From NCBI GenBank assembly GCA_963667725.2, contig CAXXHO010000003.1, positions 928,001 to 992,000 on the forward strand: DNA of 64,000 nucleotides, read 5' to 3'. This document shows, one piece after another, positions 590 through 64,000 of this stretch. Positions within the stretch are counted from its first letter, which is position 1. The number at the start of each line of letters is the position of its first letter. Source of the stretch: Treponemataceae bacterium (lineage in GTDB: Bacteria > Spirochaetota > Spirochaetia > Treponematales > Rectinemataceae). A model generated the notes under the pieces. That model saw only the letters and a program-made list of their open reading frames with translations, was not told the DNA's origin and searched no databases. The translations under genes were made by a program, and so were the position numbers.

Positions 590-590
590 T

Positions 591-3815: not shown

Positions 3816-3832
3816 TTGGAGATGACTGACAC

Positions 3833-5524
3833 ATGAATACATTCCCTTTGGCCAATCGGCGCCTAAAATCCATCCACGTGGTCGCCGTTTTCGCCCTTGC
3901 CTTTCTCCTCCATTCCTGCTCGAGCGCTGAGATTTCGTCCTTCGTGTGGAAATCGGCTTCGGGCGAGAACCTGCCCTTTGCCCAGAAAGCGGATTTTCCC
4001 AAGGGAGAGGAAAACGCCTTCAGCCTGGCTAGACCTAAAAATTCCTATGTCCTGCGGAAACCCTTGCAGATCGGCCAGGGGCTTATGGTAGCCGTAAGCA
4101 TGACGGTGAAGCAGGAAAACATCGTCGTGAGTCTCTCCCTCTCCGCCGACGCGAAAAATGCCGGACAGGAAGTCCGTTTCGCGGCCAGGCCGGGCGTCAC
4201 GGTCTTCTACCTCAGCCCTCCCTCCGCCTCGGCGGTGAGGATGCTCTCCATAAACGTGACAGCCCCCCCAAACCCTGCCGCGGACGCGAAGGAAGACAGG
4301 GTTCTTGCCGAACTGGATTCAGTATCCATTCTTCCGGCTTTCAGGGGCTATGAGCGCAGGCTCAAGGGCGGCTACAGGATTTCCGACGGCATAGCCATCG
4401 AACGAAAGGGCGCCTCCGCGAACCTCTGGGCGCTGGAAAATCCTTTCTCCGGCCAAGATGCGGCGGAGAAGGAAAAGGGCCTGTCGACGGCCCTCGTCAT
4501 CAGATACGCCAAGCGCGCCGACGCCGACATCGTCATAGAAGCCGGCAGGCGGATAGTCGCCAACGGCGCGAGCGCCAAGAAGGAATTCGTCATTCCTGCA
4601 TCGGTTTTTCCCGACGCTTCGAGCCAGGCCCTCATGACAATCCTCGTTCCCGACGAAATTCAGCTGGAGGCCGCCTATATCGAGGCGCTTCCCCTGGAAA
4701 CCGCCTCCCGCGTCGATCCCGGCGTCGCGCTGCTCCAGCCTCTTCTTTCGGAGAGGGAGGATTTCGCATGGTACCGCTGGGATCTCCTGCCCGATGTCCT
4801 GATATTCGACTTCAGGGATTACGCGGTCCAGGACAGCTATCTCAAGAGGCTGGCTTTCTTCGTCGAAAAGAAAGGTTTCGTCGGCAGGCTGGCGAAGGAT
4901 GAGGAGATCGCCTCCCTCCATGGCTGGAATGCCCACGATTATAGGGCCGAAGACCTGGCCAGGTTCTTTACGGCCGCCGGGGAAAGCGATTTTCCCTTGA
5001 GCGGGGAAGAACTTCGCCTCAGGGATTTCCTTGTGGAGAAAGGTCTCCTCACGAAGAAGGGCAACGGCTTTGGAAGCCGGAACGGCGCCATCATCTCGAT
5101 AACCCAGGAATCGGATTCCTATCTCCGCCACCGCTTTCTAACCCATGAATCCTCCCATGCCGTTTACTTCACCGACGCCAGCTACCGCAATTTCTGCGTT
5201 TCCCTCTGGAACGGCATGTCCAAGGAGGAGAAGTGGTTCTGGGTTCTCTATTTTGGATGGATGAACTACGACACGAATTCGGCTTCCCTCATGGCCAACG
5301 AGGTACAAGCCTATCTCCTCCAGCAGTCGCCTAAAAATGCCGGTGAATATTTTACCAAGACATTGCCCGATCGACTTCTCGAAAACCACCCAGAGCTGGA
5401 AGCTCCCATCGCGCTCTATATGGAAAAGCACGGGCTTGAGTTCGAAAAAAAGGCTAGGATGCTCGATGGATGGCTGAGATCAACCTATGGTTTCGGCGCG
5501 GGCACCACATTCTTTCTCGAGTGA
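3833..5524 (+). CDS. Exported protein/lipoprotein with HExxH motif (putative zinc metalloprotein)
   Basis: Signal with LLHSC; C-terminal domain RLAFFVEK...HGWNAHDY...THESSH...NEVQAY. Confidence 0.6.
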   Translation: MNTFPLANRRLKSIHVVAVFALAFLLHSCSSAEISSFVWKSASGENLPFAQKADFPKGEENAFSLARPKNSYVLRKPLQIGQGLMVAVSMTVKQENIVVSLSLSADAKNAGQEVRFAARPGVTVFYLSPPSASAVRMLSINVTAPPNPAADAKEDRVLAELDSVSILPAFRGYERRLKGGYRISDGIAIERKGASANLWALENPFSGQDAAEKEKGLSTALVIRYAKRADADIVIEAGRRIVANGASAKKEFVIPASVFPDASSQALMTILVPDEIQLEAAYIEALPLETASRVDPGVALLQPLLSEREDFAWYRWDLLPDVLIFDFRDYAVQDSYLKRLAFFVEKKGFVGRLAKDEEIASLHGWNAHDYRAEDLARFFTAAGESDFPLSGEELRLRDFLVEKGLLTKKGNGFGSRNGAIISITQESDSYLRHRFLTHESSHAVYFTDASYRNFCVSLWNGMSKEEKWFWVLYFGWMNYDTNSASLMANEVQAYLLQQSPKNAGEYFTKTLPDRLLENHPELEAPIALYMEKHGLEFEKKARMLDGWLRSTYGFGAGTTFFLE

Positions 5525-5576
5525 AAGGCCGAAGGGCGGGCTACGAAGTGAAGATAGTCGGCGAGGAGGGGGTTTT

Positions 5577-6206
5577 TCAGACGAGATCCAGGAACTCGAA
5601 TATTTTTCTATACAGCTCAAAGTACTCCGACCGGGCAAATTCGTCGATTTTTTCCTCGGGAAGGGATTCCAGGAGCCTGTCCAGATAGCCCAGCAGCTTC
5701 TTGAGATCGGCCATCGTCTCCTGGGGCAGGGGCTGCCCGGAGTTTTCCGCCGCGGCCTCGGGGCTCTCGATTTTCTCCGGCCGGGCGCCTGAGGATATGG
5801 AAGAAGCCTTGGAGATCATGTCGTCATAGGTGTTTTTCAGCGTCCCGAGCTCCAGCTTTATGGATCTCAGTTCGCCGGCGATTCTCGAGAGAAGATCGGA
5901 CTGAAGGGATTCTCCGCCGCGCGAGGTTCCCTGGGCGCGGGCTGGTGGCAGGGGTGAAGGGACATCGGGCATGGTCGCTTCCTCATCGTCGGGACGGCTC
6001 TGTCCCTCGATGTCTTCGGGGGCGATGAAAACGCCTTCTTCGTCGGAGCCGGAAGCCGTTGGATTCCAAAGCAGTTTCTGGTCGATTTTTTCGAGCGAGG
6101 AGAGGATGGTATCAGTCTCTTCCGGGCTGAGGAAAACCCCATCGTCCAAAAGTTCCTCCCGCGCATCGATGGTCGAGGATTTATGCGCCTGACTTTGTTG
6201 TCCCAC
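5577..6206 (-). CDS. Acidic hypothetical protein with conserved spirochaete-type C-terminal helical domain
   Basis: GTG start after GGGGAG; C-terminus YLDRLLESLPEEKIDEFARSEYFELYRKIF. Confidence 0.6.
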   Translation of the reverse strand: MGQQSQAHKSSTIDAREELLDDGVFLSPEETDTILSSLEKIDQKLLWNPTASGSDEEGVFIAPEDIEGQSRPDDEEATMPDVPSPLPPARAQGTSRGGESLQSDLLSRIAGELRSIKLELGTLKNTYDDMISKASSISSGARPEKIESPEAAAENSGQPLPQETMADLKKLLGYLDRLLESLPEEKIDEFARSEYFELYRKIFEFLDLV

Positions 6207-6326
6207 TATGAAATCTCCCCTATGAAATTATTATATCAGGAACGAAAGGCTTTACAAGACAAATCTAGAGCCGCCGGGCCAGCCTGTCAATATTATTAAA
6301 GCGGCTAAGCGTTTGTACCGTAAATC

Positions 6327-6848
6327 ATGATAATGGGTGAAACACAACTTCGCAACCCGGCAGGCAGAGGTCTGTCGGCTCTGGGTGACGCTTTGTCGAA
6401 CGCTCTCTGCGCCTGCGTCATCACCTACTGCATTGTCTCATTCTTCGCCGGCCAGGCGGGAATGCTGGCCTATAGGGACATGAAATCGGGCATCCGGCAG
6501 ATGAACGAGAGAATCGTCGTACTGAACGAGGAAAACGCCAAGCTCCAGGATCTGCGCAAAGCCCTGGCCTCGAATTCGGACCGAATCGCCCAGGAGGCGA
6601 GATCGATAGGCTATCTGCGCAAGGATGAGAGAATGGTGATCTTCTCCTCTCCGCAGCCGGCGACGGCCGAACCTTCGCGCGGCCGTGAAAACGAGCCTAT
6701 TCGGGCTGGATCTTCCACCGGGCTTCCCGATCTGATGATCAAGATCCTCGCCGCGATGACGGGGCTGGCCGTGCTCCTGGCTTCGCTGCTTATGTCCTCT
6801 CTTCCAAGCCGGCGCGGCGCGCTCAGAACGACGGCAAATCGATCTTGA
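6327..6848 (+). CDS. Septum formation initiator family protein (FtsB/DivIC-like)
   Basis: TM helix, GxxGxxAY, coiled coil, EARSIGYLRKDERMV; extra C-terminal TM helix. Confidence 0.7.
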   Translation: MIMGETQLRNPAGRGLSALGDALSNALCACVITYCIVSFFAGQAGMLAYRDMKSGIRQMNERIVVLNEENAKLQDLRKALASNSDRIAQEARSIGYLRKDERMVIFSSPQPATAEPSRGRENEPIRAGSSTGLPDLMIKILAAMTGLAVLLASLLMSSLPSRRGALRTTANRS

Positions 6849-9333
6849 TCGTTGTGTCGAGATCGGGCAGGGTCAGCGCGCTGTCCGGCGTCGACAGGGC
6901 GTTGTCGTTTCCCGTAGAGCCGTCGCCGCTTCCCGTGGACGAGGTTCCCGTTATCAAATTGAAGAGATTCGTGGTATTTTCGGTCTCGTCTTTGTGGATG
7001 TCACAGCTTTTAATTGGCTGGGTGCCGTCCAGATAGAGGAGATTTACCGTACCTTCGTCGCAGTATCGCGTAGGGAGCAGACCCGAGACGGCGCAGACGG
7101 TAACGCTGGAAAGGCCGGTCTGGGGCGAGGGGAAATTCTTGTACCCCAAACCCTTGTGGATATCCCTCATGAAGTCGGCCCATATAGGGGCGGCGATGGT
7201 GGCGCCCGTCTGCTCGACGCCCAAGGAGCTGCCGGGCCTGTCGAATCCGAACCAGATCGCCGTGGTGTAGTAGGGACTGAATCCTACCGTCCAGGCGTCA
7301 GCCCAGTTCACCGTCGTGCCCGTCTTGCCCGCGAGGGGGATCGTGTATGTATCGCCCTTTTCGTCCTTCTGCTTCATGGAGTTTCCGGAGTTGGTCGCGC
7401 TCGCGAGGGTGCCCGACCAGACGACGCGCTTGAGCATGTCGGTCATGATGGCGGCGTTCTGCGGGCTAACGACCTGGAGGGCGCCGCTTTTCTCGCGCAG
7501 CCTATCGCGCATTTCCTTTTCCGGCTCCAGGATCAGGTTGCCGTTCCTGTCTTCGATGTAACGGATGGCGATGGGCTCCACCGCCTTGCCGCCGTTGGCG
7601 AATACCGAATATGCCCTGGTCATGCGAAGCGGCGATACGCCGATGATGCCCAACCCGAGCGGATAAAGCCGAGGGAAAGTGTTCTGTATGTCCTTGGGGT
7701 CAGTGATGCCGAGAAGGGCCGCCGCCCTCTGGATGGCGGCGTCGAAGCCTACCGTCTCGAGCACCTTGACCGAGGGAACGTTCATGGAATGTGCCAGGGC
7801 GTTCCACGCCAGCACGTTGCCCTTCCATTCGCCCCTGAAATTCAGTGGAATATAAGGAGTCCCGTCCTCGTTGTAGAAGATGGTGGGAGTATCGTAGATG
7901 AGGGAGCCTTCGGTGATCTTCTTGGAATCGATGGCCGCGGAATAGTAGAGGGGCTTGAAGGTGGACCCGGGCATGACGTTGGACTGCGTCGCCCTGATGA
8001 GCTGGTTGGCCGTGCTGTAGTTGGATCCGCCGATCAATGCCGTTATATACCCCGTCGTGTTGTCGATGGTCACCAGAGAACCTTCAACGATGGTTTTTTC
8101 GAGGTCGGTCTTTATCCTGGCCGTACCGGAGTTGGCCAGCAGCTTCAGGTCGGGCATGCCGAAGAGGAGGGAGACAGCGTCGAGGGTGGGGTTTATCCTC
8201 GAGGTATAGTAATCGTAGGATTTTGCCTCGCTCTTGGAATCGGAGACGAAGAGGGGATGGAGGTTAAAAGACAGGCCGAGCAGTTCCACGATGGGCGTAT
8301 AGGTGTCGTCGGCTTTGGAAAGGCGCTGAGACGAAGCCCTTTTATACGAGGCGTTGGCCCTTTCTATGCCCCGTTTCATGTAAGCGTCGGCAATTTCCTG
8401 CTGATCGAGATCGAGGGTGGTGTAGACCGACAGACCGTCGGAATACAGATCGGCCGAGCCGTAGAGGAGGTCTTCCTCGAGCTGGCGCCTCACGTACTCG
8501 CTGAACCAGGGGGCCTTGTCTTCGCGGCTGTAATACGCCGACGAGGCGATCCTCGTGTAATCGAAATTATCCCAGTAGAGGTTGAAGGATGCCTCAGCCT
8601 CGGCTCTGGAGAGAACTTTGTTCTCCACCATCTGCTCCAGGAGCACTTTAGAGCGGGCCTGCGCGTTCTGGGGATTTTTGAAGGGATTGTAGAGGGTAGG
8701 TCCCGAGAGCTGGATCGCGATGATGGCCGATTCGGCGGGGGTGCATTCCTTGGCCGGATGGCCGAAGAAATACTGGCTCGCGGCATCCACGCCGTAGAGA
8801 CCTCCCGCACCCATGATTGTCCTGTTGAGGTACATTTCGAGGATTTCCGGCTTGGAGAATCTGCGCTCGATCTGAAGGGACCACCAGAGTTCCACGAGCT
8901 TCCTTCGAAGCGAGATGTCTTTGCGGTCGTCGTAGAGATCGCCGGCAAGCTGCTGGCTGATGGTAGATCCGCCGCCCAGGTTTTTTCCTATCAACTTGCC
9001 GAAAGCGGCGCGCGCTATCGAGCGGAGCGTAAAGCCCCTGTGCGAGTAAAAGCTCTTGTCCTCGCGCGTCAGGAAGGCGCCGATCAGATGGGGAGGCAGT
9101 TCGCTTATCGATACGGGGTTGCGCTTTTCCTCGGAGAAGAACTCGGTGATGAGTCTTCCTTTTATATCATAAAGCTTGGTCGGAAGCGCCGATTTGAACT
9201 CGGTGAAATTTTCGTTCCGTATGGTGTTGACGGTACCGCCCAGCGCCGCGCCGAAGCCCGCACCCAGGAGGATGACAAAGCCCAGCGAAAGCCAGACGAA
9301 GAGAGGAGCAGCGTTTTTTGACCTCTTGGACAT
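6823..9333 (-). CDS. mrcA: Class A penicillin-binding protein 1A (transglycosylase/transpeptidase)
   Basis: TREDKSFYSH, GGGSTISQQL, RKLVE; transpeptidase motifs STFK, SMN, KTG. Confidence 0.93.
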   Translation of the reverse strand: MSKRSKNAAPLFVWLSLGFVILLGAGFGAALGGTVNTIRNENFTEFKSALPTKLYDIKGRLITEFFSEEKRNPVSISELPPHLIGAFLTREDKSFYSHRGFTLRSIARAAFGKLIGKNLGGGSTISQQLAGDLYDDRKDISLRRKLVELWWSLQIERRFSKPEILEMYLNRTIMGAGGLYGVDAASQYFFGHPAKECTPAESAIIAIQLSGPTLYNPFKNPQNAQARSKVLLEQMVENKVLSRAEAEASFNLYWDNFDYTRIASSAYYSREDKAPWFSEYVRRQLEEDLLYGSADLYSDGLSVYTTLDLDQQEIADAYMKRGIERANASYKRASSQRLSKADDTYTPIVELLGLSFNLHPLFVSDSKSEAKSYDYYTSRINPTLDAVSLLFGMPDLKLLANSGTARIKTDLEKTIVEGSLVTIDNTTGYITALIGGSNYSTANQLIRATQSNVMPGSTFKPLYYSAAIDSKKITEGSLIYDTPTIFYNEDGTPYIPLNFRGEWKGNVLAWNALAHSMNVPSVKVLETVGFDAAIQRAAALLGITDPKDIQNTFPRLYPLGLGIIGVSPLRMTRAYSVFANGGKAVEPIAIRYIEDRNGNLILEPEKEMRDRLREKSGALQVVSPQNAAIMTDMLKRVVWSGTLASATNSGNSMKQKDEKGDTYTIPLAGKTGTTVNWADAWTVGFSPYYTTAIWFGFDRPGSSLGVEQTGATIAAPIWADFMRDIHKGLGYKNFPSPQTGLSSVTVCAVSGLLPTRYCDEGTVNLLYLDGTQPIKSCDIHKDETENTTNLFNLITGTSSTGSGDGSTGNDNALSTPDSALTLPDLDTTIKIDLPSF

Positions 9334-9498
9334 GACAACAAAGGTATACGAGTGCCGCGGCTTGGTCAATTATGGACGAACAGGCGTACGAAGGGGCTTA
9401 CGCGGCGGAGCGGGGAGGGCCGGGCTCAGGTTCGGGGTCCCATAGTATGGCCGCTACTGGATATTTATTTTTAAAAATTGTAAATTTCTTCGTATAGT

Positions 9499-9530
9499 AT
9501 TGACGAAGCCGGTCAATTATGGATATTAAT
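9499..9530 (+). promoter_or_regulatory. Probable sigma70 promoter of the gap operon, overlapped by an ATTGAC-N7-GTCAAT palindrome
   Basis: TTGACG at 9500, TATTAA(T) at 9524, AT-rich UP-like tract upstream. Confidence 0.45.
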
Positions 9531-9540
9531 TTATCTATAG

Positions 9541-10674
<1,134 letters not shown>

Positions 10675-38555: not shown

Positions 38556-40162
38556 CGTTCCACTATCGCGGGCCTGAAGCCGAGAAAGGCTGATCCGTGG
38601 GCTGAGGGCATGCCGCCGCGCGAGAATAGGGTGATGGAATCGGAATCGTTGGCCCAGGAGCCGCCGCGAACAGCCTTTTCGTCCCCCGAAAATTGGCCGG
38701 CCGCGAAGGCGGGGTAGGGGCGGTAAGCGTCGGCTGTCCATTCCCAGACATTGCCGAACATGTCGGCGAGGCCTGTCGCGGAATAGCCGGCGGCGCCCGA
38801 TCGCGCGGGACCTTCTTTCGCCGCGTCGGACCAGGTGGCTTTCTTTTCAGTCAGCGAGGCTGGGGCTGATAGTCCCGCGCGAGCCGCGGCCTCCCACATC
38901 GCCTCGCTGGGCAGCTCCGCTTTCCACGCGCTTCCCGTTCTGGAGGAGAGCCATGCGCAATATGCTGACGCCGCTGCCCAGGAAACGTAGGTCACGGGCT
39001 TGTCGCCGTCGATTCCGGTTTCCTTCCATTCACTGAGATAGGTGTCGTCGGCCAGCCCCGCTTTTATGAGGGCAGCCTTGTTCCTTGGATGCCAGTCGGC
39101 ATTGGCCGCGAGGAAGGCGGTCCATTGCCTGTTGGTGACTTCGGTCCGGGCGATGCCGAAGGTGGAAACGCTCGCCATATAGCCGGCCTGGGAGCCGGAA
39201 GGGGCTTCGCCCCCCATGGGCAGCTCCCCTCGCGAGAAGAGTACAAAATCATGGGCGGCCAGCGAAACGGAACCCTTGGGGCCTGGAGCTTCCATGCCGG
39301 AAGTCGGCTCGGAGGCGGCCGCGCCTTTGGCGATGGAGCTTAAAGGCAGGGCAGCAGAACTATCCTTGGACAGGATGTCCTGGAGCCAGACAGCTCCAGC
39401 CTTTTCGGAACAGAGGGCGGCGGCTGCTATGCGAGCCGCCGAGACCAGGGAGAGCGGGCCGGGCATGCCCGCGGCGGTTACGAGGACGCTTGCCTTCAAT
39501 CCGTCCCTCGCGGATTCGGATGAGGCGGTGGCCGACAGGATGTCCCTGGCGAAGTCCAGCGAACTCGAATGCTCTGCGGTATCGCTATCCTTGCCGCTCG
39601 GCGCCGGCGCCGAGCGGTCCAGGGGGGCCGATAAGGCGCCCGTTCCGGCCAAGGCTGAAACCGCGTCGGAGAGTACGGTCGGAAACTGGTAGAGGGCGCT
39701 CGGTTTTCCCGCCAGGGACCATTCGGCATATTCTTTATAGGCGGAATGAATGAGGGCCGCGGGATTTTCGGCCGAGAGGCCGAATTCGATTTTTTCGCGG
39801 CGAGGGAAAATAAGGCTGCCCAGTAGCCTTCCTTTTATATGGATATTCCTCGTCTCGGGCGTAAACCCCTCGCTTTCGACGCGGATCGAATAGTCGCCTG
39901 AGGGAAGAAAGATATTCTGTCCGATGCTTCCTTTGTACGCGTCGTCGACAAAGACTGCCGATTTGGCGGGGGCGCCTTCGAAAACAAGATAGCTTCCGTT
40001 TTTCCGTATCCCTGGCAAAACAAGGGCCAGGAAGAGCAGGAGCATCGCGAGAATCGCGTAGACCGCGGGCAGGTAGACGCGCGGCTCGACGCCGGCTATG
40101 GAGTGCAGTCTGACGGTTGCCTGATCGATGTCGGACTGTGTGATTTTCTTCTCTTCCTTCAT
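38552..40162 (-). CDS. Membrane-anchored PEGA + FGE/sulfatase-modifying-factor domain protein
   Basis: TM helix; PEGA-like segment; TEVTN, LPSEAMWEAAAR, GNVWEW, RGGSW, LGFR. Confidence 0.85.
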   Translation of the reverse strand: MKEEKKITQSDIDQATVRLHSIAGVEPRVYLPAVYAILAMLLLFLALVLPGIRKNGSYLVFEGAPAKSAVFVDDAYKGSIGQNIFLPSGDYSIRVESEGFTPETRNIHIKGRLLGSLIFPRREKIEFGLSAENPAALIHSAYKEYAEWSLAGKPSALYQFPTVLSDAVSALAGTGALSAPLDRSAPAPSGKDSDTAEHSSSLDFARDILSATASSESARDGLKASVLVTAAGMPGPLSLVSAARIAAAALCSEKAGAVWLQDILSKDSSAALPLSSIAKGAAASEPTSGMEAPGPKGSVSLAAHDFVLFSRGELPMGGEAPSGSQAGYMASVSTFGIARTEVTNRQWTAFLAANADWHPRNKAALIKAGLADDTYLSEWKETGIDGDKPVTYVSWAAASAYCAWLSSRTGSAWKAELPSEAMWEAAARAGLSAPASLTEKKATWSDAAKEGPARSGAAGYSATGLADMFGNVWEWTADAYRPYPAFAAGQFSGDEKAVRGGSWANDSDSITLFSRGGMPSAHGSAFLGFRPAIVER

Positions 40163-40228
40163 TGGGGGAAGCGTATAGGATGCGTCCGGACCTTGTCAAC
40201 GCGGTACGAACATGGTAGTGTGATTTCA

Positions 40229-41218
40229 ATGACCAAGCAGGCTGGCAAGAGCGCCGATTTCATCGACAGGCTCCAGAATTTCACGGAAACGCTACTCACT
40301 CGTCGTCTCAGGAAAAGACTTAAGGACAAGATGAAACAGCAGCGGCGGAACGCCGTGGTGGATTGGCTCATGGCCATTTTATGGGCGGCCTGCGTCGTTC
40401 TCGTCATCAATCAATATATCTTCCAGAACTACCAGATACCTTCCGAGTCCATGGTCAAGACGCTGAAGATCGGCGATATGATTTTCGTCGACAAGCTTTC
40501 CTATGGCCCAGAACTCCTGCCTGGCGTCGCCAAGCTTCCAGGGCTCGCCCAACCTCACCGAGGCCAGATCATTGTTTTCGAGAATCCGACCTATCTTTCC
40601 AAAGGACCAGTCTTCACCATTGTCCAGCAGATGATCTATATGCTCACGCTTACGATGGTCGATATCGACAGGGACCAGAACGGCGAACAGAGGGTCCATT
40701 ATCTTATAAAGCGCGCCGTCGGGTTTTCCGGCGACAGGATCAGGGTCGACGAGGGCGAGGTATCCATCAAGCCCGAAGGTTCTTCTTCCTGGTTTTCCGA
40801 GCCCGCGCTGATGAAGCATCTGGGGCTTCCCTTCGCCGCCGAGCGGATGGTGGCTAAAAGCGAATACAAGGCCATCGAGGCCGTCGGCGCGATGTCGGCA
40901 TATCAGGAAAGCAGGCTTAGCGTTCCCGCCTCATCGGGATCGGCGAATATCTCCTCGGCATACAAGGACGCTTTCGGTTACGACATGAAAAGGGTTTCAG
41001 TGCTCAAGGACATGAATCCCTCGGATTCCCGGATCGCCGCCACATCCAGACGTTACGAGATGGGTTGGTATATACCGGAGGGAAGAATCTTCCCGATGGG
41101 CGACAACAGGGACAATTCGCGGGACGCCCGCTACTTCGGCCCGGTGAACCTGAACCGAGTGCTCGGAAGGGCATTGTTCATCTACTGGCCATTGGGCCGG
41201 GCAGGCCGAATCCGCTGA
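40229..41218 (+). CDS. lepB: Signal peptidase I
   Basis: IPSESM (catalytic Ser), YLIKRAVG (catalytic Lys), MGDNRDNSRD. Confidence 0.93.
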   Translation: MTKQAGKSADFIDRLQNFTETLLTRRLRKRLKDKMKQQRRNAVVDWLMAILWAACVVLVINQYIFQNYQIPSESMVKTLKIGDMIFVDKLSYGPELLPGVAKLPGLAQPHRGQIIVFENPTYLSKGPVFTIVQQMIYMLTLTMVDIDRDQNGEQRVHYLIKRAVGFSGDRIRVDEGEVSIKPEGSSSWFSEPALMKHLGLPFAAERMVAKSEYKAIEAVGAMSAYQESRLSVPASSGSANISSAYKDAFGYDMKRVSVLKDMNPSDSRIAATSRRYEMGWYIPEGRIFPMGDNRDNSRDARYFGPVNLNRVLGRALFIYWPLGRAGRIR

Positions 41219-41282
41219 AGATTCATACTTCCGATGTCTTGGTAAAGGCGTCGGGTGCCGGTAGATTCCAGGGGGACAGGTC

Positions 41283-42014
41283 ATGGCGTTTTCCAACAGA
41301 CATCGCTCCTACACCGAGAAAGTGATGACCGCCCGTAAAAGGCGCAGAGGACTCCGCAAGGTCCTCCTCGTTCTCCTCTCGGTGGGGCTTATCCGCACTT
41401 TCTTCCTTCAGTCGTATAAGGTTGACGCCACATCGATGCGGCCGGCCCTTTCCCCTGGCGACAGAGTCCTGTCTTTTCCCCTTCCGGTTGGCGCCGCAAC
41501 GCTTTTCGGAAAATTGCCTCGCATAACCGACTTGAAAAGAGGGGAGCTTATCGTCCTCGCTCCCGATCCCATACCTGCGGAAAGCTGGTGGTTCAGCGCC
41601 TGGGATAGCCTGGCGCGATTCTTCACGCTTCAATATTATTCCCCCTCGGCCCGGCGCCATGGCCTCAGTCTGACCTCTCCGGGCCTGTATAGAGTCATAG
41701 GACTGCCCGGCGACGCCATCAGGCGCAAGGGGGCTCTGTATGAAATACGCCCGGCGGGTTCCACTTTGTTCCAGAATGAGTACATGCTTTCCGAGGTCAG
41801 CTATTCGCTTTCCGGTACCTCCCCGGTTTCAGGGCCGGCTCAGGGCGGAGAATTCGCGCGCGTGAATATCCTTGGAAAGAACGAATACTACGTCGCCTGC
41901 GACGACAGATCCTTGTTGGCGGGATCCCAGCTATGGGGGTCCGTAGGACAGGAAAGAATCATCGGGCGGATCATCGCCGTCTGGTGGCCTCTACGGCGCA
42001 TGAAAATACCATGA
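41283..42014 (+). CDS. S26 signal-peptidase-like paralogue with degenerate active site
   Basis: SYKVDATSMRPAL..GDRV, LYRVIGLPGD, IIGRI..WWP. Confidence 0.8.
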   Translation: MAFSNRHRSYTEKVMTARKRRRGLRKVLLVLLSVGLIRTFFLQSYKVDATSMRPALSPGDRVLSFPLPVGAATLFGKLPRITDLKRGELIVLAPDPIPAESWWFSAWDSLARFFTLQYYSPSARRHGLSLTSPGLYRVIGLPGDAIRRKGALYEIRPAGSTLFQNEYMLSEVSYSLSGTSPVSGPAQGGEFARVNILGKNEYYVACDDRSLLAGSQLWGSVGQERIIGRIIAVWWPLRRMKIP

Positions 42015-55652: not shown

Positions 55653-55726
55653 AGACTCTTCTGGAGACCCGTCTCCAGAAGAGTCTATAGACGGGTCTCC
55701 AGACGAGTTTCCAGATGAGTCTCCAA
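55653..55726. repeat. Degenerate 12-bp tandem repeat plus a perfect 16-bp inverted repeat at the queA/tmk junction
   Basis: Minus strand TTGGAGACTCAT CTGGAAACTCGT CTGGAGACCCGT CTATAGACTCTT CTGGAGACGGGT; inverted repeat agactcttctggagac-cc-gtctccagaagagtct. Confidence 0.85.
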
Positions 55727-56338
55727 GGCTAGGAATATCTGTCTAGTGACATCGTCCATGGATTTTTCCGCGTCTATCACCGCGATGTTCCATCCGGCGG
55801 CCTTCGCGTCGGCCAGCGCTTCCTCATATGCCGCGCTCACCTGCTTCTGGATGTGCAGTTTTTCATAAATCTCCAGCTGATCCCTGGCGCTGACCCTGCG
55901 CATGGCTGTTTCCGGATCGATTTTGAAGAAAATTGTGAGTCCGGGAATGGGGAATACCTCGTTGAGACGCCTCGGAAGATCCTTGCCGCAGGCGATGCCC
56001 TGATAGGCGAGGCTGGACAGGGAATAACGGTCGCAGACGACGATTTTCCCCCCCTTGGTCGCGCTGAGAATGCCTTCTTCCCCAAAAACATGCTGATAAC
56101 GATCCGCGGCAAAGAGATAGGCCACCGTGCCTGGTTCGGCCTTGATGTCTCCCCTGAGGACGCGTCGGATGAGGACGCCTTCGGGGCGAGACGTTGGTTC
56201 CGCGGTGATCATATGGGGAATGGCGTTCTTCTCCATCATCGAAGAAAGCCTTCGCATCTGCGTCGTCGTCCCGGAACCGTCAATGCCTTCAAAAACGATG
56301 AAGTTTTTTATGGCCGTTACTGTGTCATAGCTTTGCAT
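55685..56338 (-). CDS. tmk: Thymidylate kinase
   Basis: FEGIDGSGTTTQ, LFAADR, CDRYSLSSLAYQG. Confidence 0.94.
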   Translation of the reverse strand: MQSYDTVTAIKNFIVFEGIDGSGTTTQMRRLSSMMEKNAIPHMITAEPTSRPEGVLIRRVLRGDIKAEPGTVAYLFAADRYQHVFGEEGILSATKGGKIVVCDRYSLSSLAYQGIACGKDLPRRLNEVFPIPGLTIFFKIDPETAMRRVSARDQLEIYEKLHIQKQVSAAYEEALADAKAAGWNIAVIDAEKSMDDVTRQIFLALETHLETRLETRL

Positions 56339-56391: not shown

Positions 56392-59300
56392 ATGGCACGA
56401 AAAAGCGCTAAATTGGCCTGGGCCGTCATAATCGCGGTTCTGGTCGCAGGAATACTCGCGGTGTACACCGTACCACGTGTGCGGAAGTATGCCGATAGGC
56501 GCATCGAAACCGTCATCAGTTCTCTTCAGGATACCGTTTTTTCGATCACGGGCCTCAGACTGGGTTATGGATACGCCGCGCTTTCCTCATCCAGCCGCGT
56601 ATCCATCCACGATATAGAGCTTTTCCAGGAAACCGCCGACGATTATTCCGTTCTGCGCCGCAAAGTGATTTCGGCGGGAGACCTGGAGCTGCGCATCGAC
56701 CTATGGGCCGCGATTTTCGGAAAGCCGGCCGACATCATCAGGGAAATACGGGTCTCCGCCATAAGCATCGACCTGGAATTTCCCGACGATTTCAGCATTT
56801 ACAACAACATCAGCAAGTACCTGGCCGATCAGCCGGCCGGCGAAATGCCGCGTCTCTCCATCGACCTCAGCGATATCTCAATCGGCATCCGCGATGGCGA
56901 GAGAGGTAAATACGGCGCGTCCATATCTTCGCTCCAGGTATCCACGATCTCCGGTCTCCTGGAATTGGTCGCTCCTTCAGCGATTGTTTTCGCCTCCGTT
57001 CCCGCCGCCGAGGCGCAGGAAGTTTTCCTGCAGGTGACGATGGCCAGGGTATCCATGCCGAGCGATTCTTCCGGACTTACGGCTTCCCTGGGGCTTTCGG
57101 CGCGCTATGGAACCATGACGCTGGCCGAACAGAAGATAGCCATCGCGAAATCGGGCGAAAAGTTCGAACTGAAGCTGGGGAACGGAAACGGTCTCGAAGG
57201 GGTTCTGCGGTATACGCCCGGGCAGGAAGCGCTGGATGGCGAAATTAGGCTGAAGGAGTATAGACCCGAAGCCGACCTGTCCGGATTCGATGCCGTCCTC
57301 AAGGATTTGTTCGGGCTTAAATATCAAGGTGAAGTCCTTTTTTCCTACGGAAAAGACGGGTTGTCCTATGAAGGTCGTCTGCAGGCCGCCGGGGAAGCGG
57401 GTAAGCGCGTGGGCGGGCTGTCGGCGGAAGGGGCCGAGCTGGAAGCCGTCGGGAAGGGAAACGCGGAGGGACTGGAAGAACTGCGGCTCAGGGGCAGGGC
57501 GGGCGACTATACGCTGGCGTATGAAGGCCCGCTGGACTATCAGGGGCTGAAAATTATCGGCGCAGTGTCCCTCTCCGCCGGTGATGAAACCGTTCGGGGA
57601 GAACTCAAGGGCGAGAACGGAAGCTACGCGCTGTCGGTTGGGGATGCCGTCCTGAAGGGCTTTAAGATAAGCGACTTGATGGCCGGAGTAGAGAAGCGGG
57701 GCGATATCTACAGCCTGAGGCTCAAGGGTGAGCTGGAGAAGGACGGCCAGTCCGTATCTCTTGATGGTACTGGAAAATACGGAACGGAACTGAGCTTCAA
57801 AATCAAGCTTGCGTACCAGGACAGGTCTTACCTCCTGGAAGGAACCTATGGGAAGGGGCTGGTAAGCCTGAACGGCGGTTACGGGCTTAGCGGTGAGGTG
57901 CGATTCCTCGATGAAGGAGCCTTCAGCGGAAGCATCAAGGCCCAGGGTCTGCCATTGGCCGTGGATGGCGGCGTTCTTTACCTGGATCTGTCGCTGCGCG
58001 GCAATTATGCGGCGAACGGGATCTGGAAGGTTGAAGGCGATGAAGTCCGGGTGCGGTACGAAGGGAAGGGAGAAATCCCGGCAATAGGGCTGAAGGGCTT
58101 GAAACTCGACGCGGGAAAGCTGTCCGTGAAAACTTTATCCCTGCAGGGCAATGGCTACGGCCTTTCCGGCGGCCTAAGGGGAAGTTACGGAGAAAAGGCC
58201 TTGGAGGGTTCAGCCTCCCTTGTCGGGGAAGGAATGCTTGGCGGCGGAACGGCTCGTTATGAGCTGAGTCTGGGCTACGGCGAAGGCAGCGGAAAGCTGA
58301 AGCTTCAGGTGGACGGCTATGATCTAGGGCTTATCGGCGTGGATGGCTACCGGGCAAAAGCCCTGCTCGAGGGATCCGGGGAACTGTCGCTCGAGGAACT
58401 GCTCCGCGGTGAGTACGGGAGGCTGGACGGCTGGGTGCTGAAGGGCAAAGCCGGCCTCGCGGGCAGCGCCGGCCTCGCGAGCAGCGCCGTGTCGATTTCC
58501 GATCAGAGGCTGGAGCTGAGCAAAGCCGGCAAAGAGCTTTCGCTGAAGATTGGGAACGGGAGAGGTTTTGACGCGATCCTGCGATATGCGCTTGGCGAAG
58601 AATCCGTGACCGGAGCGGTCACGCTGAAAGGGTATAAGCCGGAGGGCGATGTCCTGGGACTGGCGGGCGCGCTGAAGGAGCTTCTCGCGCTGCGCTACGA
58701 TGGCGGAGCCTCGTTTGCGTACGATAAAAGCGGATTGAGGTACGAGGGCGACGTTTTCGTGAAGGGCGAGACAGGGCAGAAAGTGAGCGGCCTACCGGTG
58801 GCGGGCGCGAGCGTGGAGCTTGCCGGAAAGGGAAATGAGCGGGGATTTGGGGAAATAGCCGTCAAGGGAATACTTGGCGATTACAGGATTGGCTATGAAG
58901 GTTCGTTCGGCTATGAGGGACTGGCGGCGGCCGGCGAGATCTCGCTCTCGAAAGACGGGGAAGCGCTGCGTGGGACGGTAAAGGGCGAGCGAGGAACCTA
59001 TGACGTGACCGTCGGGGCGGGTCTCCTTGGTGGAGTTGAGCTTAAAAATCTGACGGCGGGTATTAAAAGCGAAGCCGATAGATACGGGCTCAGGCTGAAG
59101 ACGGAAATAGGAGCGGGCAGAGTCGAGGGCGATGGATTTATCCTGAAGGGGAATTCCGACTACGAATGGCGGATGAACCTCCAGGACTTGGATATGCTGG
59201 GTATATTGAGTGTCGCGCGGGGCTTCGGGGTCCAGCTGTCCGCGGACGGAATCGGGCAGGCGTCGCTGAGCGGAAGCCTGAGCATCAAGGGAGACAAGGG

Positions 59301-62300
59301 AAAGAGTTCATGGGCGGCTTTCGGAATGGAAGGAGCGCTCGATGTCGATGGCACGAAGATCCTCCTGACAGGTTCCGGATCGGGCGATGAAAGCTGGTAT
59401 GAAATACGCGGTCTTGAAGCGGAGGTTGCCGGGGAGACGGTCAGCATCAACGGAAAAGGCGAGTTTGGAGCCCTGACAAAGTTCGCCGGGAACCTCGGTT
59501 ACCGAGGAGTGAACTACAGGCTGGAGGGAACCTATTCAAAAGGCCTGGCGACCCTAAAGGGCGAATACGGGCTCGATGCCGAAGTTGTGATCGGTAAAGA
59601 TGGAACGCTGAAGGGCAGCCTGAAAGCCCGCGCCTTCCCCTTGGCTCTGGATGAGGGCCGTATGTATGGTGACCTGTCGCTGCGGGGATTCTATGGGGCG
59701 GACAAGGCTTGGCGGCTGGAAGGCGACGAGATTGCCCTGCGTTATGAGGGGAATGGAGCATTTCCGGCCCTCTGGATGAATGGGCTGAAAGTCAGCGGCG
59801 GCGTGGTGGACGTGGCTGCCCTGACGCTGAGGGGGGAGGGCTACGGGCTCTCTGGAAGCCTTAGCGGAAGTTTTGGGGCAAAGGGTATTGAAGGCCGCGG
59901 TCATTTTATCGGCGAAGGTTCCTTGGGCAGCGGGCTGGCTCAGTACAATCTGGATCTGGGGTATGGGGAAGGTCAAGGCAGGCTGAAAATCGGCCTGAGC
60001 GGCTATGATCTGGGAATTGTCGGCCTCAAGGGCTTCCGGGCTCATGCTTCGCTGGAAGGATCGGGAGAGCTGTCGCCAGAAGAACTGCTTCGCGGAGAGT
60101 TGGGAAAGCTGGATGGCTGGGTGCTGAGAGGAAAAGCCGGGCTCGAAGGCGATGCCTTGACGTTGAACGATCAGGACATCGAGATAAGTAAGGCCGCCGA
60201 CCTTCTTTCATTGAAGGTGGGAAACGGCAAGGGATTCGAAGGGCTGCTGCGGTACAGCCTGGACGGGAAAGAGCTTGAGGGCCAAGTATTGCTTGCCGCG
60301 TACAGACCCGAGGGCGATATCGCGACGCGGATCCCTCTGCTGCGGGATCTTTCCGGGCTTCTGTTCGAGGGGGGAGCCGCCCTTTCCTATGGCGAAAGCG
60401 GATTATCCTATGAAGGCCAGATCCTGGCCCTCGGGGAAGCCAGTCGGCTGGTGGGCGGCGTATCGACGGATGGCGCGAGGTTTGAGGCTGCCGGAAAAGG
60501 GGATGGGATCGGGCTCGCCAAAGTGGCCTTACGAGGCGTTCTAGGGACCTATGAGCTCAGCTACGATGGTTTGTTACGCTATGAGGGATTGAAAGTCGCC
60601 GGCGGCCTGTCCTTCTCGGCAGGGGCCGATATCGTTCAGGGGAATCTGAAGGGCGAGAAGGGCATATACGAGCTTACGATCGGGCAAGCTTCGATAATGG
60701 GCATCGGAATCAGGGGCTTGGCGGCTGGGCTTGAGAGAAAAGCCGATAGCTACGGTCTCACCTTGAGCGGGGAACTGGAAAAGGACGGCGAGACGGTACG
60801 GGTCAAGGCGACGGGTGAATACGGAACGGATCTGAAGTTCGCCGCGGAGCTTGGCTATCGAGGCGTCGCCTACGGCCTGGATGGAACCTTTGAAAACGGT
60901 CAGTTGACCATGAAGGGCGGATACGGCCTCGTAGGCAAGCTGGTCATCGGCGAAGGAAAGGCGATAGAGGGAAGCCTGAGCGCCAGGGATTTGCCGCTGG
61001 CTGTGGACGGCGGCATGGTGTATGGAAATCTGTCGCTCAGGGGCGCCTACGGGAAGGATAGATCCTGGTGGGTGGAAGGCGATGAAGTCGGCCTCCGTTA
61101 CGAGGGAAAGGAAAAATATCCGATCCTCGGAATGAAGGGTTTGAGAATCGGCGGCGGAAGGGCGGAGGTGGACTCCCTCACGCTGGAGGGAGAGGGCTAT
61201 GGTCTCTCCGGAAGCCTGAAGGGGAGCTACGGTGGGGAAGGAACCGAGGCTTTTGAGGGCAGCGGCATCTTCATCGGTGAAAAAGCCCTGGGCGGCGGCT
61301 CGGCCATATATGAGCTTAGCTTCGGCTATGGCGAAGGCCGCGGCAGAATTCGGCTTGGCGTCGATGGCTACGATCTGGGTTTCGCGGGGCTGAAGGGATA
61401 CAGGGCGAATGCCTCTCTCGCCGGATCCGGCGACCTCTCTTGGGCGGAACTCGTCAAGGGCGAGCTTGGGAAGCTGGACACATGGGTGATGAGGGGCAAA
61501 GCAGGGCTCTTCGGCGATGCCATGACGCTCTCCGAACAGGGATTGGAGCTGCGCAAAATCGGCGATCTGCTCACCCTGAGCGTCGGAAACAAGAATGGAT
61601 TTGAGGGAGCGGTGAGTTATGCCCTCGGTGCGAAATCAGCAGGCGGCGAAATCCTCCTGGATGGATATTCGCCCGAAAAAGATCTCATCGGTCTGGATGG
61701 GATCCTGAAAGATCTCCTTGGCCTGAAGTATGGCGGCAAGGCGGTATTCGCCTATGGCGAGAGCGGCCTGACCTACGCTGGCGACATTGTCGTGCAGGGG
61801 GAAGCCGGCCGCAAAATAGGCGGACAGTCCGTGGAAGGCATGCTCATGGAGGTTATCGGAAAGGGAGACTTGACCGGCCTTGGCGAGCTGACGCTGAAGG
61901 GTTCTTTCGAAGGATATACACTTGGCTACGGGGGATCGCTTTCCTATGAGGGTATGAAAGTTGCGGGCGCTCTATCTCTGTCGAAGGGGGAGGAAGCCGT
62001 TCTTGGATTTGTGAAGGGAGAAAAAGGAGCGTATGAGCTCTCGGTGGGAGATGGCACGCTGGGGGGCATCAGGCTTCAGGGCTTGCTGGCCGCGGTTGAG
62101 GAAAAGGAAGAGCGTTACGATATAAGATTGAACGGGGAGCTTGCGGGAGGGAAGATCGAGGCTGAAGGCTCTTTATTGAAAGGGAAGAAAGGCTACGAAG
62201 GGCGCATGAGTCTTCAGGATACCGAAATCATGGGCCTGCTGCGTCTCGCTGAGGTTTTTGGGCTCAAGGTTCCCGAAGTCGGGCTTAAAAAAGCTCTTGT

Positions 62301-64000
62301 CAGCGGAGGATTCAGCCTCAGCGGGGACTATGAGAAGGTAGCCTGGGCCGTCGGGAATTTGAGAGGGGATCTGGAGCTCGATAGCGGCAAGGTCGTTGTA
62401 AAAGGCTCCGGGATAGGGGACGGAAGTAAGTTTGAGATCAAGGATCTGATTCTCGAGACGGGAGCGGAAAATATCAGCGTGAAAGGCTCAGGCGAATATG
62501 GCGCCGGCATAAAGTTCGCCGGAGACGTCGGATTCCGGGGGATGAATTATGGGGTGGAAGGAGCCTATGAAAATGGCCTGGTAAAGCTTAAAGGCGATTA
62601 TGGGCTCGAGGGGGAGGCGCAGATAGGCGACGACGGCACGTACAAGGGCAGCCTTAAGGCCAAGGGCTTCCCGTTGACGATGTCTGACGGCCTGGTCTAT
62701 GGAGATCTTTCGCTTCGCGGCACCTTTGGCGCCGACAAAGTCTGGCGGATCGACGGAGACGATATCGGTCTACGCTATGAATATGAAGGCGAGTATGAGT
62801 ATCCGACGCTTGGCATGAAAGGAGTAAAGATCAGCGAAGGCAGGCTGGATGTCGGCACGCTGACGGTTACGGGAAAGGACTATGGACTTTCAGGGTATCT
62901 GAACATCGGGTATAAAAACTTGCTGACGAAACCCGCTATCGCTTTGGATGGATCGCTGAGAAACTCGAAGAACGTCGTTGAGACCTACAATGTAAGCGCG
63001 ACGTATGTCGATGGAATCGTCGACGCGAAAATCGGCATCGCGGGCTTCCCGCTTGAGCGATATGTCAAAAAAGACATAAAGGGCGCGATAGAGGGAACCA
63101 TCAGCATTCTGGGACCATTAGATCAGGCGGCGCTGAAGCTGGATCAGCTGGACTTGAAAATCCTTCCTCCCGCCAAACTGGACGTCAAGCTGATCGGGGG
63201 AGAATATAGGAACATTCCCATCAAGATGACGGCTTCCGGATCGCTTGAAAAAGGACTTCTCAAGATTGTTTCGCCCAAGATTGATTACCTGAATCACCAG
63301 GCGGAAAACATAAGCGCGGCGATATTGCCGGCGGAAGGCAGGATAAATCTCAGCTTTGACTACAGGACGGTGCTGGGGAGCGAACGTCTGGAGACCAGCG
63401 TCGTCGCCGAGGCTCGAATACACGGCGCATCAGCCGACGCATCCGCTAACGCGAGCGCGGAAGACAAGGGTTTTTCCGCCGAATTCTCCGGAAAGCTATT
63501 AAATGCCAAATATCGTGAAACTTTAGTGGATCGCTGGGAGTTTTCTGGTACATACGGGAACGGAAATCTTTCCTTTAACGGCGACAGGGGAGGGCTGATG
63601 GCGAACATTGGCGCCGATGGAGCCTTCGACGTAGTGATGAAGGATAGATTTCCCGTTTCCGCAACCATAAAGGGGACCATGTCGAGCAATATCGTGACAG
63701 CATCCATGGAAAATCTCGAGATCGATCTGAAGAAATTCAGTTCGGTTCTGCCGACGGGGAAAATCTCCTTGCTCGATGGAGTCCTGACAGGCGACCTTAT
63801 GCTCAAAGGTCCGCTCTCCGACCCGGAGATAAACGGCGCGCTCACCCTGAAAAAAGCCAAGATTCTGTCCAGGGAATTGGTGCTGGGCGAGCTGGGTCCA
63901 TTCTCCACGACACTCAACTTTACCGGCAAGAATATCGAAATGGCTCCAGCGACGGTGCCTCTTGAAAAGGGAGTCGTGGAGGTCTCGGCGTCGGGCCTTC
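56392..64000 (+). CDS. Giant TamB/AsmA-like protein (>2,536 aa, 3' end outside the window) with tandem super-repeats
   Basis: Frame +1 is open from ATG 56392 to the end. N-terminal TM anchor MARKSAKLAWAVIIAVLVAGILAVY; all-beta Gly-rich body; TamB-like LDGVLTGDLMLKGPLSDPEINGAL near the end; divergent from tmk. Confidence 0.8.
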   Translation, partial: MARKSAKLAWAVIIAVLVAGILAVYTVPRVRKYADRRIETVISSLQDTVFSITGLRLGYGYAALSSSSRVSIHDIELFQETADDYSVLRRKVISAGDLELRIDLWAAIFGKPADIIREIRVSAISIDLEFPDDFSIYNNISKYLADQPAGEMPRLSIDLSDISIGIRDGERGKYGASISSLQVSTISGLLELVAPSAIVFASVPAAEAQEVFLQVTMARVSMPSDSSGLTASLGLSARYGTMTLAEQKIAIAKSGEKFELKLGNGNGLEGVLRYTPGQEALDGEIRLKEYRPEADLSGFDAVLKDLFGLKYQGEVLFSYGKDGLSYEGRLQAAGEAGKRVGGLSAEGAELEAVGKGNAEGLEELRLRGRAGDYTLAYEGPLDYQGLKIIGAVSLSAGDETVRGELKGENGSYALSVGDAVLKGFKISDLMAGVEKRGDIYSLRLKGELEKDGQSVSLDGTGKYGTELSFKIKLAYQDRSYLLEGTYGKGLVSLNGGYGLSGEVRFLDEGAFSGSIKAQGLPLAVDGGVLYLDLSLRGNYAANGIWKVEGDEVRVRYEGKGEIPAIGLKGLKLDAGKLSVKTLSLQGNGYGLSGGLRGSYGEKALEGSASLVGEGMLGGGTARYELSLGYGEGSGKLKLQVDGYDLGLIGVDGYRAKALLEGSGELSLEELLRGEYGRLDGWVLKGKAGLAGSAGLASSAVSISDQRLELSKAGKELSLKIGNGRGFDAILRYALGEESVTGAVTLKGYKPEGDVLGLAGALKELLALRYDGGASFAYDKSGLRYEGDVFVKGETGQKVSGLPVAGASVELAGKGNERGFGEIAVKGILGDYRIGYEGSFGYEGLAAAGEISLSKDGEALRGTVKGERGTYDVTVGAGLLGGVELKNLTAGIKSEADRYGLRLKTEIGAGRVEGDGFILKGNSDYEWRMNLQDLDMLGILSVARGFGVQLSADGIGQASLSGSLSIKGDKGKSSWAAFGMEGALDVDGTKILLTGSGSGDESWYEIRGLEAEVAGETVSINGKGEFGALTKFAGNLGYRGVNYRLEGTYSKGLATLKGEYGLDAEVVIGKDGTLKGSLKARAFPLALDEGRMYGDLSLRGFYGADKAWRLEGDEIALRYEGNGAFPALWMNGLKVSGGVVDVAALTLRGEGYGLSGSLSGSFGAKGIEGRGHFIGEGSLGSGLAQYNLDLGYGEGQGRLKIGLSGYDLGIVGLKGFRAHASLEGSGELSPEELLRGELGKLDGWVLRGKAGLEGDALTLNDQDIEISKAADLLSLKVGNGKGFEGLLRYSLDGKELEGQVLLAAYRPEGDIATRIPLLRDLSGLLFEGGAALSYGESGLSYEGQILALGEASRLVGGVSTDGARFEAAGKGDGIGLAKVALRGVLGTYELSYDGLLRYEGLKVAGGLSFSAGADIVQGNLKGEKGIYELTIGQASIMGIGIRGLAAGLERKADSYGLTLSGELEKDGETVRVKATGEYGTDLKFAAELGYRGVAYGLDGTFENGQLTMKGGYGLVGKLVIGEGKAIEGSLSARDLPLAVDGGMVYGNLSLRGAYGKDRSWWVEGDEVGLRYEGKEKYPILGMKGLRIGGGRAEVDSLTLEGEGYGLSGSLKGSYGGEGTEAFEGSGIFIGEKALGGGSAIYELSFGYGEGRGRIRLGVDGYDLGFAGLKGYRANASLAGSGDLSWAELVKGELGKLDTWVMRGKAGLFGDAMTLSEQGLELRKIGDLLTLSVGNKNGFEGAVSYALGAKSAGGEILLDGYSPEKDLIGLDGILKDLLGLKYGGKAVFAYGESGLTYAGDIVVQGEAGRKIGGQSVEGMLMEVIGKGDLTGLGELTLKGSFEGYTLGYGGSLSYEGMKVAGALSLSKGEEAVLGFVKGEKGAYELSVGDGTLGGIRLQGLLAAVEEKEERYDIRLNGELAGGKIEAEGSLLKGKKGYEGRMSLQDTEIMGLLRLAEVFGLKVPEVGLKKALVSGGFSLSGDYEKVAWAVGNLRGDLELDSGKVVVKGSGIGDGSKFEIKDLILETGAENISVKGSGEYGAGIKFAGDVGFRGMNYGVEGAYENGLVKLKGDYGLEGEAQIGDDGTYKGSLKAKGFPLTMSDGLVYGDLSLRGTFGADKVWRIDGDDIGLRYEYEGEYEYPTLGMKGVKISEGRLDVGTLTVTGKDYGLSGYLNIGYKNLLTKPAIALDGSLRNSKNVVETYNVSATYVDGIVDAKIGIAGFPLERYVKKDIKGAIEGTISILGPLDQAALKLDQLDLKILPPAKLDVKLIGGEYRNIPIKMTASGSLEKGLLKIVSPKIDYLNHQAENISAAILPAEGRINLSFDYRTVLGSERLETSVVAEARIHGASADASANASAEDKGFSAEFSGKLLNAKYRETLVDRWEFSGTYGNGNLSFNGDRGGLMANIGADGAFDVVMKDRFPVSATIKGTMSSNIVTASMENLEIDLKKFSSVLPTGKISLLDGVLTGDLMLKGPLSDPEINGALTLKKAKILSRELVLGELGPFSTTLNFTGKNIEMAPATVPLEKGVVEVSASGL
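57115..62900 (+). repeat. Four diverged intragenic repeat units starting at 57115, 58489, 60157 and 61522
   Basis: Recurring motifs in each unit: (L/I)xxQx(I/L)x(I/L)xK, GN(G/K)xG(F/L), Y(R/K/S)PExD, (D/N)LSLRG, GD(E/D)xxxRYE, YGLSG; units 1-3 also have GYGEG, GYDLG, LD(G/T)WV..GKAGL. Confidence 0.92.

Follow-up and report, generated by a model that had tools for sequence, protein, structure and literature searches.

What is the long open frame that runs off the end of the stretch of DNA analysed here (64,000 nucleotides of a Rectinemataceae genome; hereafter, the window), how did it reach its size, and what would keep a protein of that size in the cell envelope? A sequence-only reading of the window proposed a TamB-like bridge, lengthened by tandem repeats and possibly scaled to a wide periplasm. 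The relationship between the length of AsmA/TamB bridges and the gap that they span is raised only in passing in the papers cited below, and the TamBs of Rectinemataceae, with 1, 2, 3 or 4 copies of one module, allow direct length-function tests.

The tamB locus

The genes and segments of the locus are the following (plain positions are those of the window; C3 denotes a contig of the same genome, G000):

55685..56338, minus strand: thymidylate kinase gene (tmk), the divergent neighbour upstream of tamB
56392..64000, plus strand: tamB, the first 2,536 codons of a gene for 2,911 aa; the frame continues past the window to G000:C3:993127
56416..56472, plus strand: N-terminal hydrophobic segment of TamB, residues 9-27, presumed inner-membrane signal anchor (hydropathy)
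C3:993147-995657: bamA, 5 POTRA domains and an Omp85 barrel, downstream of tamB and outside the window
C3:995726-996289: skp, next after bamA
between skp and mutS, minus strand: STAS gene
C3:996873-999515: mutS, beyond the STAS gene

The frame that had been read as open for 2,536 codons from position 56392 is indeed open, and reaches its stop codon 1,127 nt past the end of the window, for a total of 2,911 aa. The N-terminal anchor and the Gly-rich body noticed at the same time are likewise confirmed: residues 9-27 (mean Kyte-Doolittle hydropathy 2.5) form the sole strong hydrophobic segment of the whole protein, and Gly accounts for 15-23% of residues 200-2200. The identification as TamB, for which an extension of the contig had been proposed as the check, is upheld by a PF04357 (TamB/DUF490) match at the C-terminus (residues 2655-2853, 58.5 bits against a cut-off of 22.4, E 9.5e-16) and by bamA (TIGR03303, 433.7 bits; cut-off 297), which begins 19 nt after the tamB stop within the order tmk-tamB-bamA-skp-(STAS gene)-mutS. 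A profile of the last repeat unit and the C-terminus retrieves the solved 1,259-aa TamB with E 1.3e-10. The NCBIfam TamB equivalog model NF047952 scores 31.1 bits, below the required 825, as expected because the spirochaete type of TamB is divergent, and the Pfam search returns no family match in the repeated region. That the gene product is a TamB is close to certain. Both PF04357 matches in the genome lie inside this gene, which is thus the only TamB locus of the genome and probably encodes a functional TamB.

TamB and BamA are a textbook pair. The tamB-bamA-skp order is described for Borrelia (PMC5582053), and tamB-bamA with a five-POTRA BamA is reported as general in spirochaetes (PMC4494059). 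The present locus resembles the hybrid BAM-TAM locus bb0794-bamA-skp of Borrelia burgdorferi (PMC5582053, PMC13382580) in the N-terminal anchor, which was tested and described as uncleaved in BB0794 (PMC5582053), in the C-terminal DUF490 domain and in the five-POTRA bamA and skp downstream. Unlike BB0794, which has ~1,465 aa and presumably one unit, the protein analysed here has 2,911 aa and four units, and belongs to a genome in which flagellin and FliF were sought and not found. In E. coli and Borrelia, TamB is known or modelled to complete the barrel of its Omp85 partner (PMC13119328, PMC13382580). By homology, the 2,911-aa TamB would have its N-terminus in the inner membrane and its DUF490 end docked on BamA, as known for Borrelia, and may transport lipids or OMPs.

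Elsewhere in the window, at positions 40103-42014, two adjoining genes look, from their translations, like signal peptidase I paralogues.

The repeated segment and its predicted structure

The repeated part of tamB consists of the following segments:

57112..58485, plus strand: unit 1, modules A+C, 458 aa (self-comparison, alignment, module profiles)
58486..60153, plus strand: unit 2, modules A+B+C, 556 aa (self-comparison, alignment, module profiles)
59110..59427, plus strand: module B of unit 2, 6 strands and a helix, missing in units 1 and 3 (alignment, model)
60154..61518, plus strand: unit 3, modules A+C, 455 aa (self-comparison, alignment, module profiles)
61519..63141, plus strand: unit 4, modules A+B+C, end approximate (corresponds, in colinear alignment, to the one unit present in ordinary spirochaete TamB)

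Four homologous units had been read at spacings of 458, 556 and 455 aa, and chunked self-comparison recovers these offsets along with those of 1,014, 1,011 and 1,469 aa (33-81% local identity, E down to 1e-30); plain whole-protein self-BLASTP gave the self match alone. The refinement is that the units are modular: a 104-aa block, module B, is present in units 2 and 4 only, and the module profiles resolve the array as (AC)(ABC)(AC)(ABC), with a higher-order period of ~1,012 aa. A four-way alignment gives identities of 45-51% between unit 1 and the others. When aligned with a profile built from single-unit relatives, the ~560-aa unit falls at positions ~232-810 in a spirochaete TamB of usual length (~1,455 aa); what has been multiplied is, by alignment, the middle of a normal spirochaete TamB, now present as four diverged copies.

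The view that units so diverged are no echo of the assembly stands as well. The unit DNA is 64-69% identical, and a 10,242-nt contig of sequencing run X1, possibly the source sample, covers the gene (positions 1-10092 of locus L001) with 0 differences. Run X5, from a different study, covers the gene in ~99%-identical pieces at a flat depth of 11.6-17, and 4 of the 5 members of the 90% protein cluster of this TamB, drawn from NCBI, ENA and Logan assemblies, are 2,905-2,911 aa long.

The AlphaFold2 model of unit 4 and the C-terminus (1,198 aa; 58 sequences in the alignment) has a pLDDT of 83.3 and a pTM of 0.47, so that it does not fix the overall shape and length. The solved structures most similar to it are fragments of TamB, namely, 9xdc and 9xdd (Z 13.9 for both, rmsd 4.7 and 5.6 A, 255 and 267 residues aligned) and 5vtg (Z 10.5, rmsd 3.1 A over 129 residues), and as modelled, the C-terminal region has the beta-taco fold of TamB. 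This superposition and an amphipathic beta trunk are shared with E. coli TamB (PDB 9XDC, 9XDD, 5VTG), a proposed lipid bridge (PMC13119328, PMC13507460); unlike the present protein, that of E. coli has 1,259 aa and TamA as its partner.

The model across the junction of units 2 and 3 (modules B-C-A, 556 aa, 80 sequences) has a pLDDT of 94.1, a pTM of 0.80 and no segment with pLDDT below 50, and forms one continuous amphipathic beta-sheet, so that the sheet is predicted to run on through the C-to-A junction. Modules A, B and C contain 14, 6 and 16 strands, respectively (strands of at least 6 residues; one 3-residue strand omitted). Because all these numbers are even, copies that are added or trimmed would extend the same up-down sheet without flipping its hydrophobic face. 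The hydrophobic/polar alternation along the strands is 2.45 vs 1.49 +/- 0.18, above all 1,000 shuffles. Among the structural matches listed for the unit, all are single-layer sheets of a generic kind (porin walls, the ApoB100 belt, OspA; best Z 10.4, rmsd 22 A) and, for this reason, its groove shape is taken from homology; VPS13, ATG2, YhdP and LPD-3 chains were not among the matches listed (at most 50 per search) for either model. Of the continuous beta-taco expected for the units, the junction model supports the continuity of the amphipathic sheet; the curled taco shape, to which no solved trunk among the matches listed corresponds, is putative.

Could the repeated region be no TamB trunk at all, but an insertion of adhesin-like or beta-helical type, or else an artefact of assembly? 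The lack of a Pfam match in this region and the low ESM Atlas recognition score of unit 2 (1310) would be compatible with such an origin. However, the unit has its counterpart, by alignment, in the one middle segment of normal spirochaete TamB; both models show meanders, with strands mostly of 6-15 residues and short turns between them, and no beta-helix, and no Pfam match to a beta-helical adhesin or autotransporter passenger was found; the nearest Atlas clusters are TamB_N (the Atlas name of PF27051), TamB and YdbH-like (0.90-0.92); and separate assemblies agree. The unit alignment, the cluster lengths, the junction model and the run coverage largely refute the insertion or artefact, which we regard as most improbable, and a continuous lengthened TamB trunk is probably the correct description.

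The amphipathic up-down trunk would have grown as its ~560-aa middle segment was duplicated in tandem and in frame. For E. coli TamB, a length of 215 A is predicted for 1,259 aa (PMC13507460), with about 60 strands (PMC13382580). On this basis, the three extra units, with ~96 strands, are estimated to add 34-46 nm if the molecule is straight, and the bridge would then measure 50-60 nm instead of roughly 25 nm; simple proportion would give ~50 nm in total. The module series shows where a bridge can be cut or extended without breaking the sheet.

TamB length and unit number among spirochaetes

Across the phylum, 401 genomes were sampled, and PF04357 is matched in 186; lengths were taken, as open frames, from the 150 matches listed (46 being unlisted). 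Among these, the 149 other TamBs have a median of 1,468 aa: 144 are 1,285-1,617 aa long, three are shorter, and two reach 1,935 and 1,964 aa. A unit-profile search of representative proteins agrees, with 110 of the best 150 of 754 matches at 1,380-1,560 aa. Given these lengths, 2,911 aa is not the spirochaete norm but about twice it, in line with the rough doubling of the groove that the first reading had put forward. The protein also lies far above the bacterial TamB length classes of 1,250-1,300, 1,450-1,500 and 1,650-1,700 aa (PMC13119328); a few very long exceptions are mentioned in the literature (PMC4494059). The two long outliers of the sample (G103, 1,935 aa, and G089, 1,964 aa) are flagellated and lack the unit-type repeat. 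Outside the family, a spirochaete lineage represented by P0084 and P0153 has TamBs of 2,629 and 2,644 aa that come from an independent, older duplication, so giant TamB is not unique to the Rectinemataceae clade described below. Two other TamB-like proteins have different internal repeats, one of 2,123 aa (P0008) with a ~130-aa period and one of 1,672 aa (P0115) with a ~80-aa period near the N-terminus.

By description, rather than by structure match, the lengthened TamB is similar to VPS13, ATG2, BLTP1-3 and the eukaryotic DUF490 proteins (mean 2,150-2,200 aa; PMC13119328), repeating beta-sheet bridges whose length is thought to be tied to membrane spacing. It differs in that the lengthening here occurs by recognisable ~560-aa tandem units that vary among close relatives. 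The greater length of eukaryotic DUF490 members has been suggested to reflect larger membrane distances (PMC13119328), so the length-scaling idea is already in print, though not for a repeat-expanded spirochaete TamB. A literature search by title and abstract start, with most subscription journals, including those of species descriptions, outside its scope, found nothing on repeat-expanded TamB, on the tether discussed below or on the periplasm width of Rectinemataceae.

The four units recur in the two other species of the genus, in proteins of 2,900 and 2,911 aa that are 68% and 90% identical to the one described here, and the units of the three species cluster by position. The dN/dS values are 0.14-0.26 in all four units vs 0.18-0.21 in the non-repeated N-terminus; by this measure, all four units are shown to be under purifying selection. 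In the tree of TamB C-termini (a gene tree, not a species tree), 13 genera form one clade with a support of 1.0, in which unit number varies from under 1 to 4. Of 69 genomes sampled in the family, 61 have a TamB match, 34 inside the clade and 27 outside. Inside, 2-4 units are present in 7 genomes (one frameshifted) and no more than one in 4; in 20, a contig stops within the unit or at its edge, and the remaining 3 retain C-terminal pieces only. Outside, 23 have a single frame of 1,442-1,584 aa (7 judged by frame length alone), one is broken in the unit, two are broken elsewhere and one is frameshifted.

In six clade genomes, the contig ends bear exact overlaps of 47-141 nt; in four of the six, the overlapped site is displaced by one period (1,602-1,809 nt), a displacement by which collapsed near-identical repeats are recognised. 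Near-identical tamB copies are seen directly in G019 (99.3% over 1,448 nt), G061 (99.8% over 1,230 nt) and G063 (four at 96-98%), and P0003-P0006 and P0010 have copies that are mostly 96-100% identical at the protein level; diverged copies occur in G015, P0007 and P0032. P0004 and P0005 are equal in length, yet their copies group by protein, a pattern of concerted evolution. Because near-identical repeats break tamB in most draft genomes of the clade, the expansion is hidden from annotation-based surveys, and the short TamBs of the clade could themselves be collapsed identical repeats. The rate of module A relative to the C-terminus is 3.1-5.5 in five close clade pairs vs 1.1-2.5 in seven flagellated pairs; it is not raised in two distant clade pairs (1.6 and 2.1), and two clade pairs lack module A. 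Gly makes up 16-27% of the units in 19 of 20 clade proteins vs 10-14% in flagellated members of the family.

Several individual loci of the clade bear separate mention. L053:400-9035 (G063) contains the four tamB copies, ~1,585 nt each, broken by frameshifts that are possibly sequencing errors. L039:4659-8039 (G018), encoding 1,127 aa, and the frameshifted L055:5247-9627 (G065) each lack part of a unit, through contraction or a collapsed assembly. In the window, a G-over-C skew of 0.19-0.37 over positions 57000-63000 is restricted to the repeated region of tamB; it fits an enrichment in Gly, Glu and Lys that is seen clade-wide, even in single-unit members.

Flagellum loss, a probable outer-membrane tether and envelope width

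Flagellin was found in none of 40 clade genomes vs all 29 other genomes of the family. Rectinema cohabitans is described as rod-shaped (PMC6052044), and endoflagellar gene loss is reported to accompany non-spiral shape in spirochaetes (PMC12236494). Flagellum loss alone does not lengthen TamB: in three other families (f14, f9 and f17), nine genomes without flagella keep TamBs of 1,285-1,617 aa, and the long outliers G103 and G089 are flagellated. Loss of the cell wall is rejected too, penicillin-binding proteins being present in 45 of 45 genomes.

A search for OmpA domains in this lineage led to a large conserved protein that consists of a signal peptide, a FadL/PorV-like barrel (Atlas 0.97-0.98), an array of FlgD-type Ig domains and a C-terminal PF00691 domain:

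G000:C3:1523615-1530343 = L102:3616-10344, minus strand: protein of barrel, 16 FlgD-Ig and OmpA domain, 2,243 aa
L111:939-18236: 48-Ig orthologue of G019, 5,766 aa, with 100%-identical blocks

The protein is likely an outer-membrane-to-cell-wall tether, with an Ig chain that would lie in the periplasm and a C-terminal domain that would bind the wall. We counted Ig domains in 31 orthologues of the family, from 68 genomes with a match, resolving split hits by span. The flagellated relatives have 8 Ig domains in 11 of 12 cases and 12 in the remaining one, whereas all 14 complete clade arrays have 16-48 (ten arrays of 16, three of 20 and a single one of 48); five further clade arrays, cut by contig ends, have at least 7-15. 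In the 16-Ig form, which is common to several genera, the best repeat pairs are 26-51% identical, so that, judged by repeat divergence, this state is old. In the class sample (201 genomes), no tether frame besides that of this genome exceeds 1,860 aa among the 150 of 291 matches listed; the tether query has no match in family f14 (0 of 14), nor in G103 or G089.

Why, then, is the long TamB kept? We favour the view that, in this aflagellate lineage of Rectinemataceae, a wider gap separates the outer membrane from the cell body, and that the lengthened protein would have been retained for this reason; we put the probability of this reading at about 0.5. It is proposed because the clade acquired its doubled tether at its origin, which hints, indirectly, at a widened envelope. 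The TamB expansion, the tether doubling and the flagellum loss all fall in one clade, however, and so count as one evolutionary event. In its fullest form, more tentatively held, the aflagellate clade would have rebuilt its envelope with ~2x the membrane spacing, rescaling both TamB (from 1 unit to 4, each with an even number of strands) and the tether (from 8 to 16-48 Ig domains) by in-frame tandem duplication. Were it so, repeat counts would read out periplasm width from sequence, and the family would contain a bacterial lipid bridge in a natural series of lengths. The doubling of the presumed tether makes a sharp prediction on envelope width for non-spiral Rectinema-type cells.

Several observations bear on how strictly lengths and distances could be matched. 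TamB length and Ig number do not covary within the clade (G069, 1,416 aa and 16 Ig; G018, 1,127 and 20; G000, 2,911 and 16; G001, 2,900 and 20; G019, 2,603 and 48), and G014 has a 12-Ig tether beside a single-unit TamB. TolC-type pumps need a normal gap; the TolC-type frame of G000 (501 aa) and the neighbouring adaptor frame (491 aa) have ordinary sizes. Hence, of the suggestion that TamB is a bridge to a wide periplasm and a ruler of its width, the first part gains from the tether doubling, and a strict molecular ruler is not shown. An Ig domain is ~4 nm long, so an 8-Ig tether already equals the length of an ordinary TamB, and full extension of these proteins is not required. As envelope spanners that act as spacers, the two proteins are comparable to Lpp and OmpA, which set the distance from outer membrane to wall (PMC8824477), and the tether has the PF00691 domain of OmpA. 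The Lpp work in E. coli differs in that it involved engineered changes of a few nm (PMC8824477), whereas here two large spanners have doubled naturally. E. coli meets a longer Lpp by tilting it, with the periplasm not widened (PMC8824477).

The main rival is a tolerated accordion, in which, after a first duplication, unequal crossing-over and gene conversion would keep shifting the copy number, and the extra length would be harmless and matched to no distance, the Gly-rich trunk tilting or bending in an envelope freed from the constraint of periplasmic flagella. The near-identical copies in other clade members (96-100%), the grouping of the P0004 and P0005 copies by protein, a unit number (<1 to 4) unrelated to tether length, and units that evolve faster, relative to the C-terminus, in the five close clade pairs than in the seven flagellated ones (the two distant clade pairs excepted) all fit this scenario. 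Yet four diverged units have stayed intact across the species of the genus (68-90% identical), each under purifying selection, and the 16-Ig tether is old and spread over genera. Purifying selection also follows from the need to fold, so that it does not fully separate harmless copy-number change from a wide envelope, and the former is possible, if short of probable. Alternatively, the extra units might provide capacity or reach, as a curved or coiled lipid reservoir or an oblique conduit to sparse BamA sites. A lipid-wrapping beta-belt, that of ApoB100, is among the closest look-alikes of the unit (Foldseek E 5.6e-5, TM 0.29), and the high Gly content of the clade units suits a bendable sheet, but the doubling of the tether is left unexplained, and we consider a reservoir or oblique conduit unlikely.

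Some further envelope components were inspected. The LptA-like gene is ordinary in size and uninformative on envelope width, and LptD, sought with PF19838, was not found in any of 5 genomes. TolC-type (PF02321) matches number 0-5 per genome in the aflagellate clade vs 1-29 in the flagellated relatives. A paralogue of the tether, encoded at G000:C3:77554-80715 (minus strand), is a 1,054-aa lipoprotein-like protein that combines 4 Ig domains with an OmpA domain and shares 73% identity with the last 200 aa of the tether. G000 also encodes several large proteins (1,630-2,864 aa) with internal repeats of ~90-280 aa, most of them with signal-peptide-like starts, at these positions:

C4:15176-21520
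C5:37629-46220
C5:66348-71957
C5:76699-81588
C5:685136-692557
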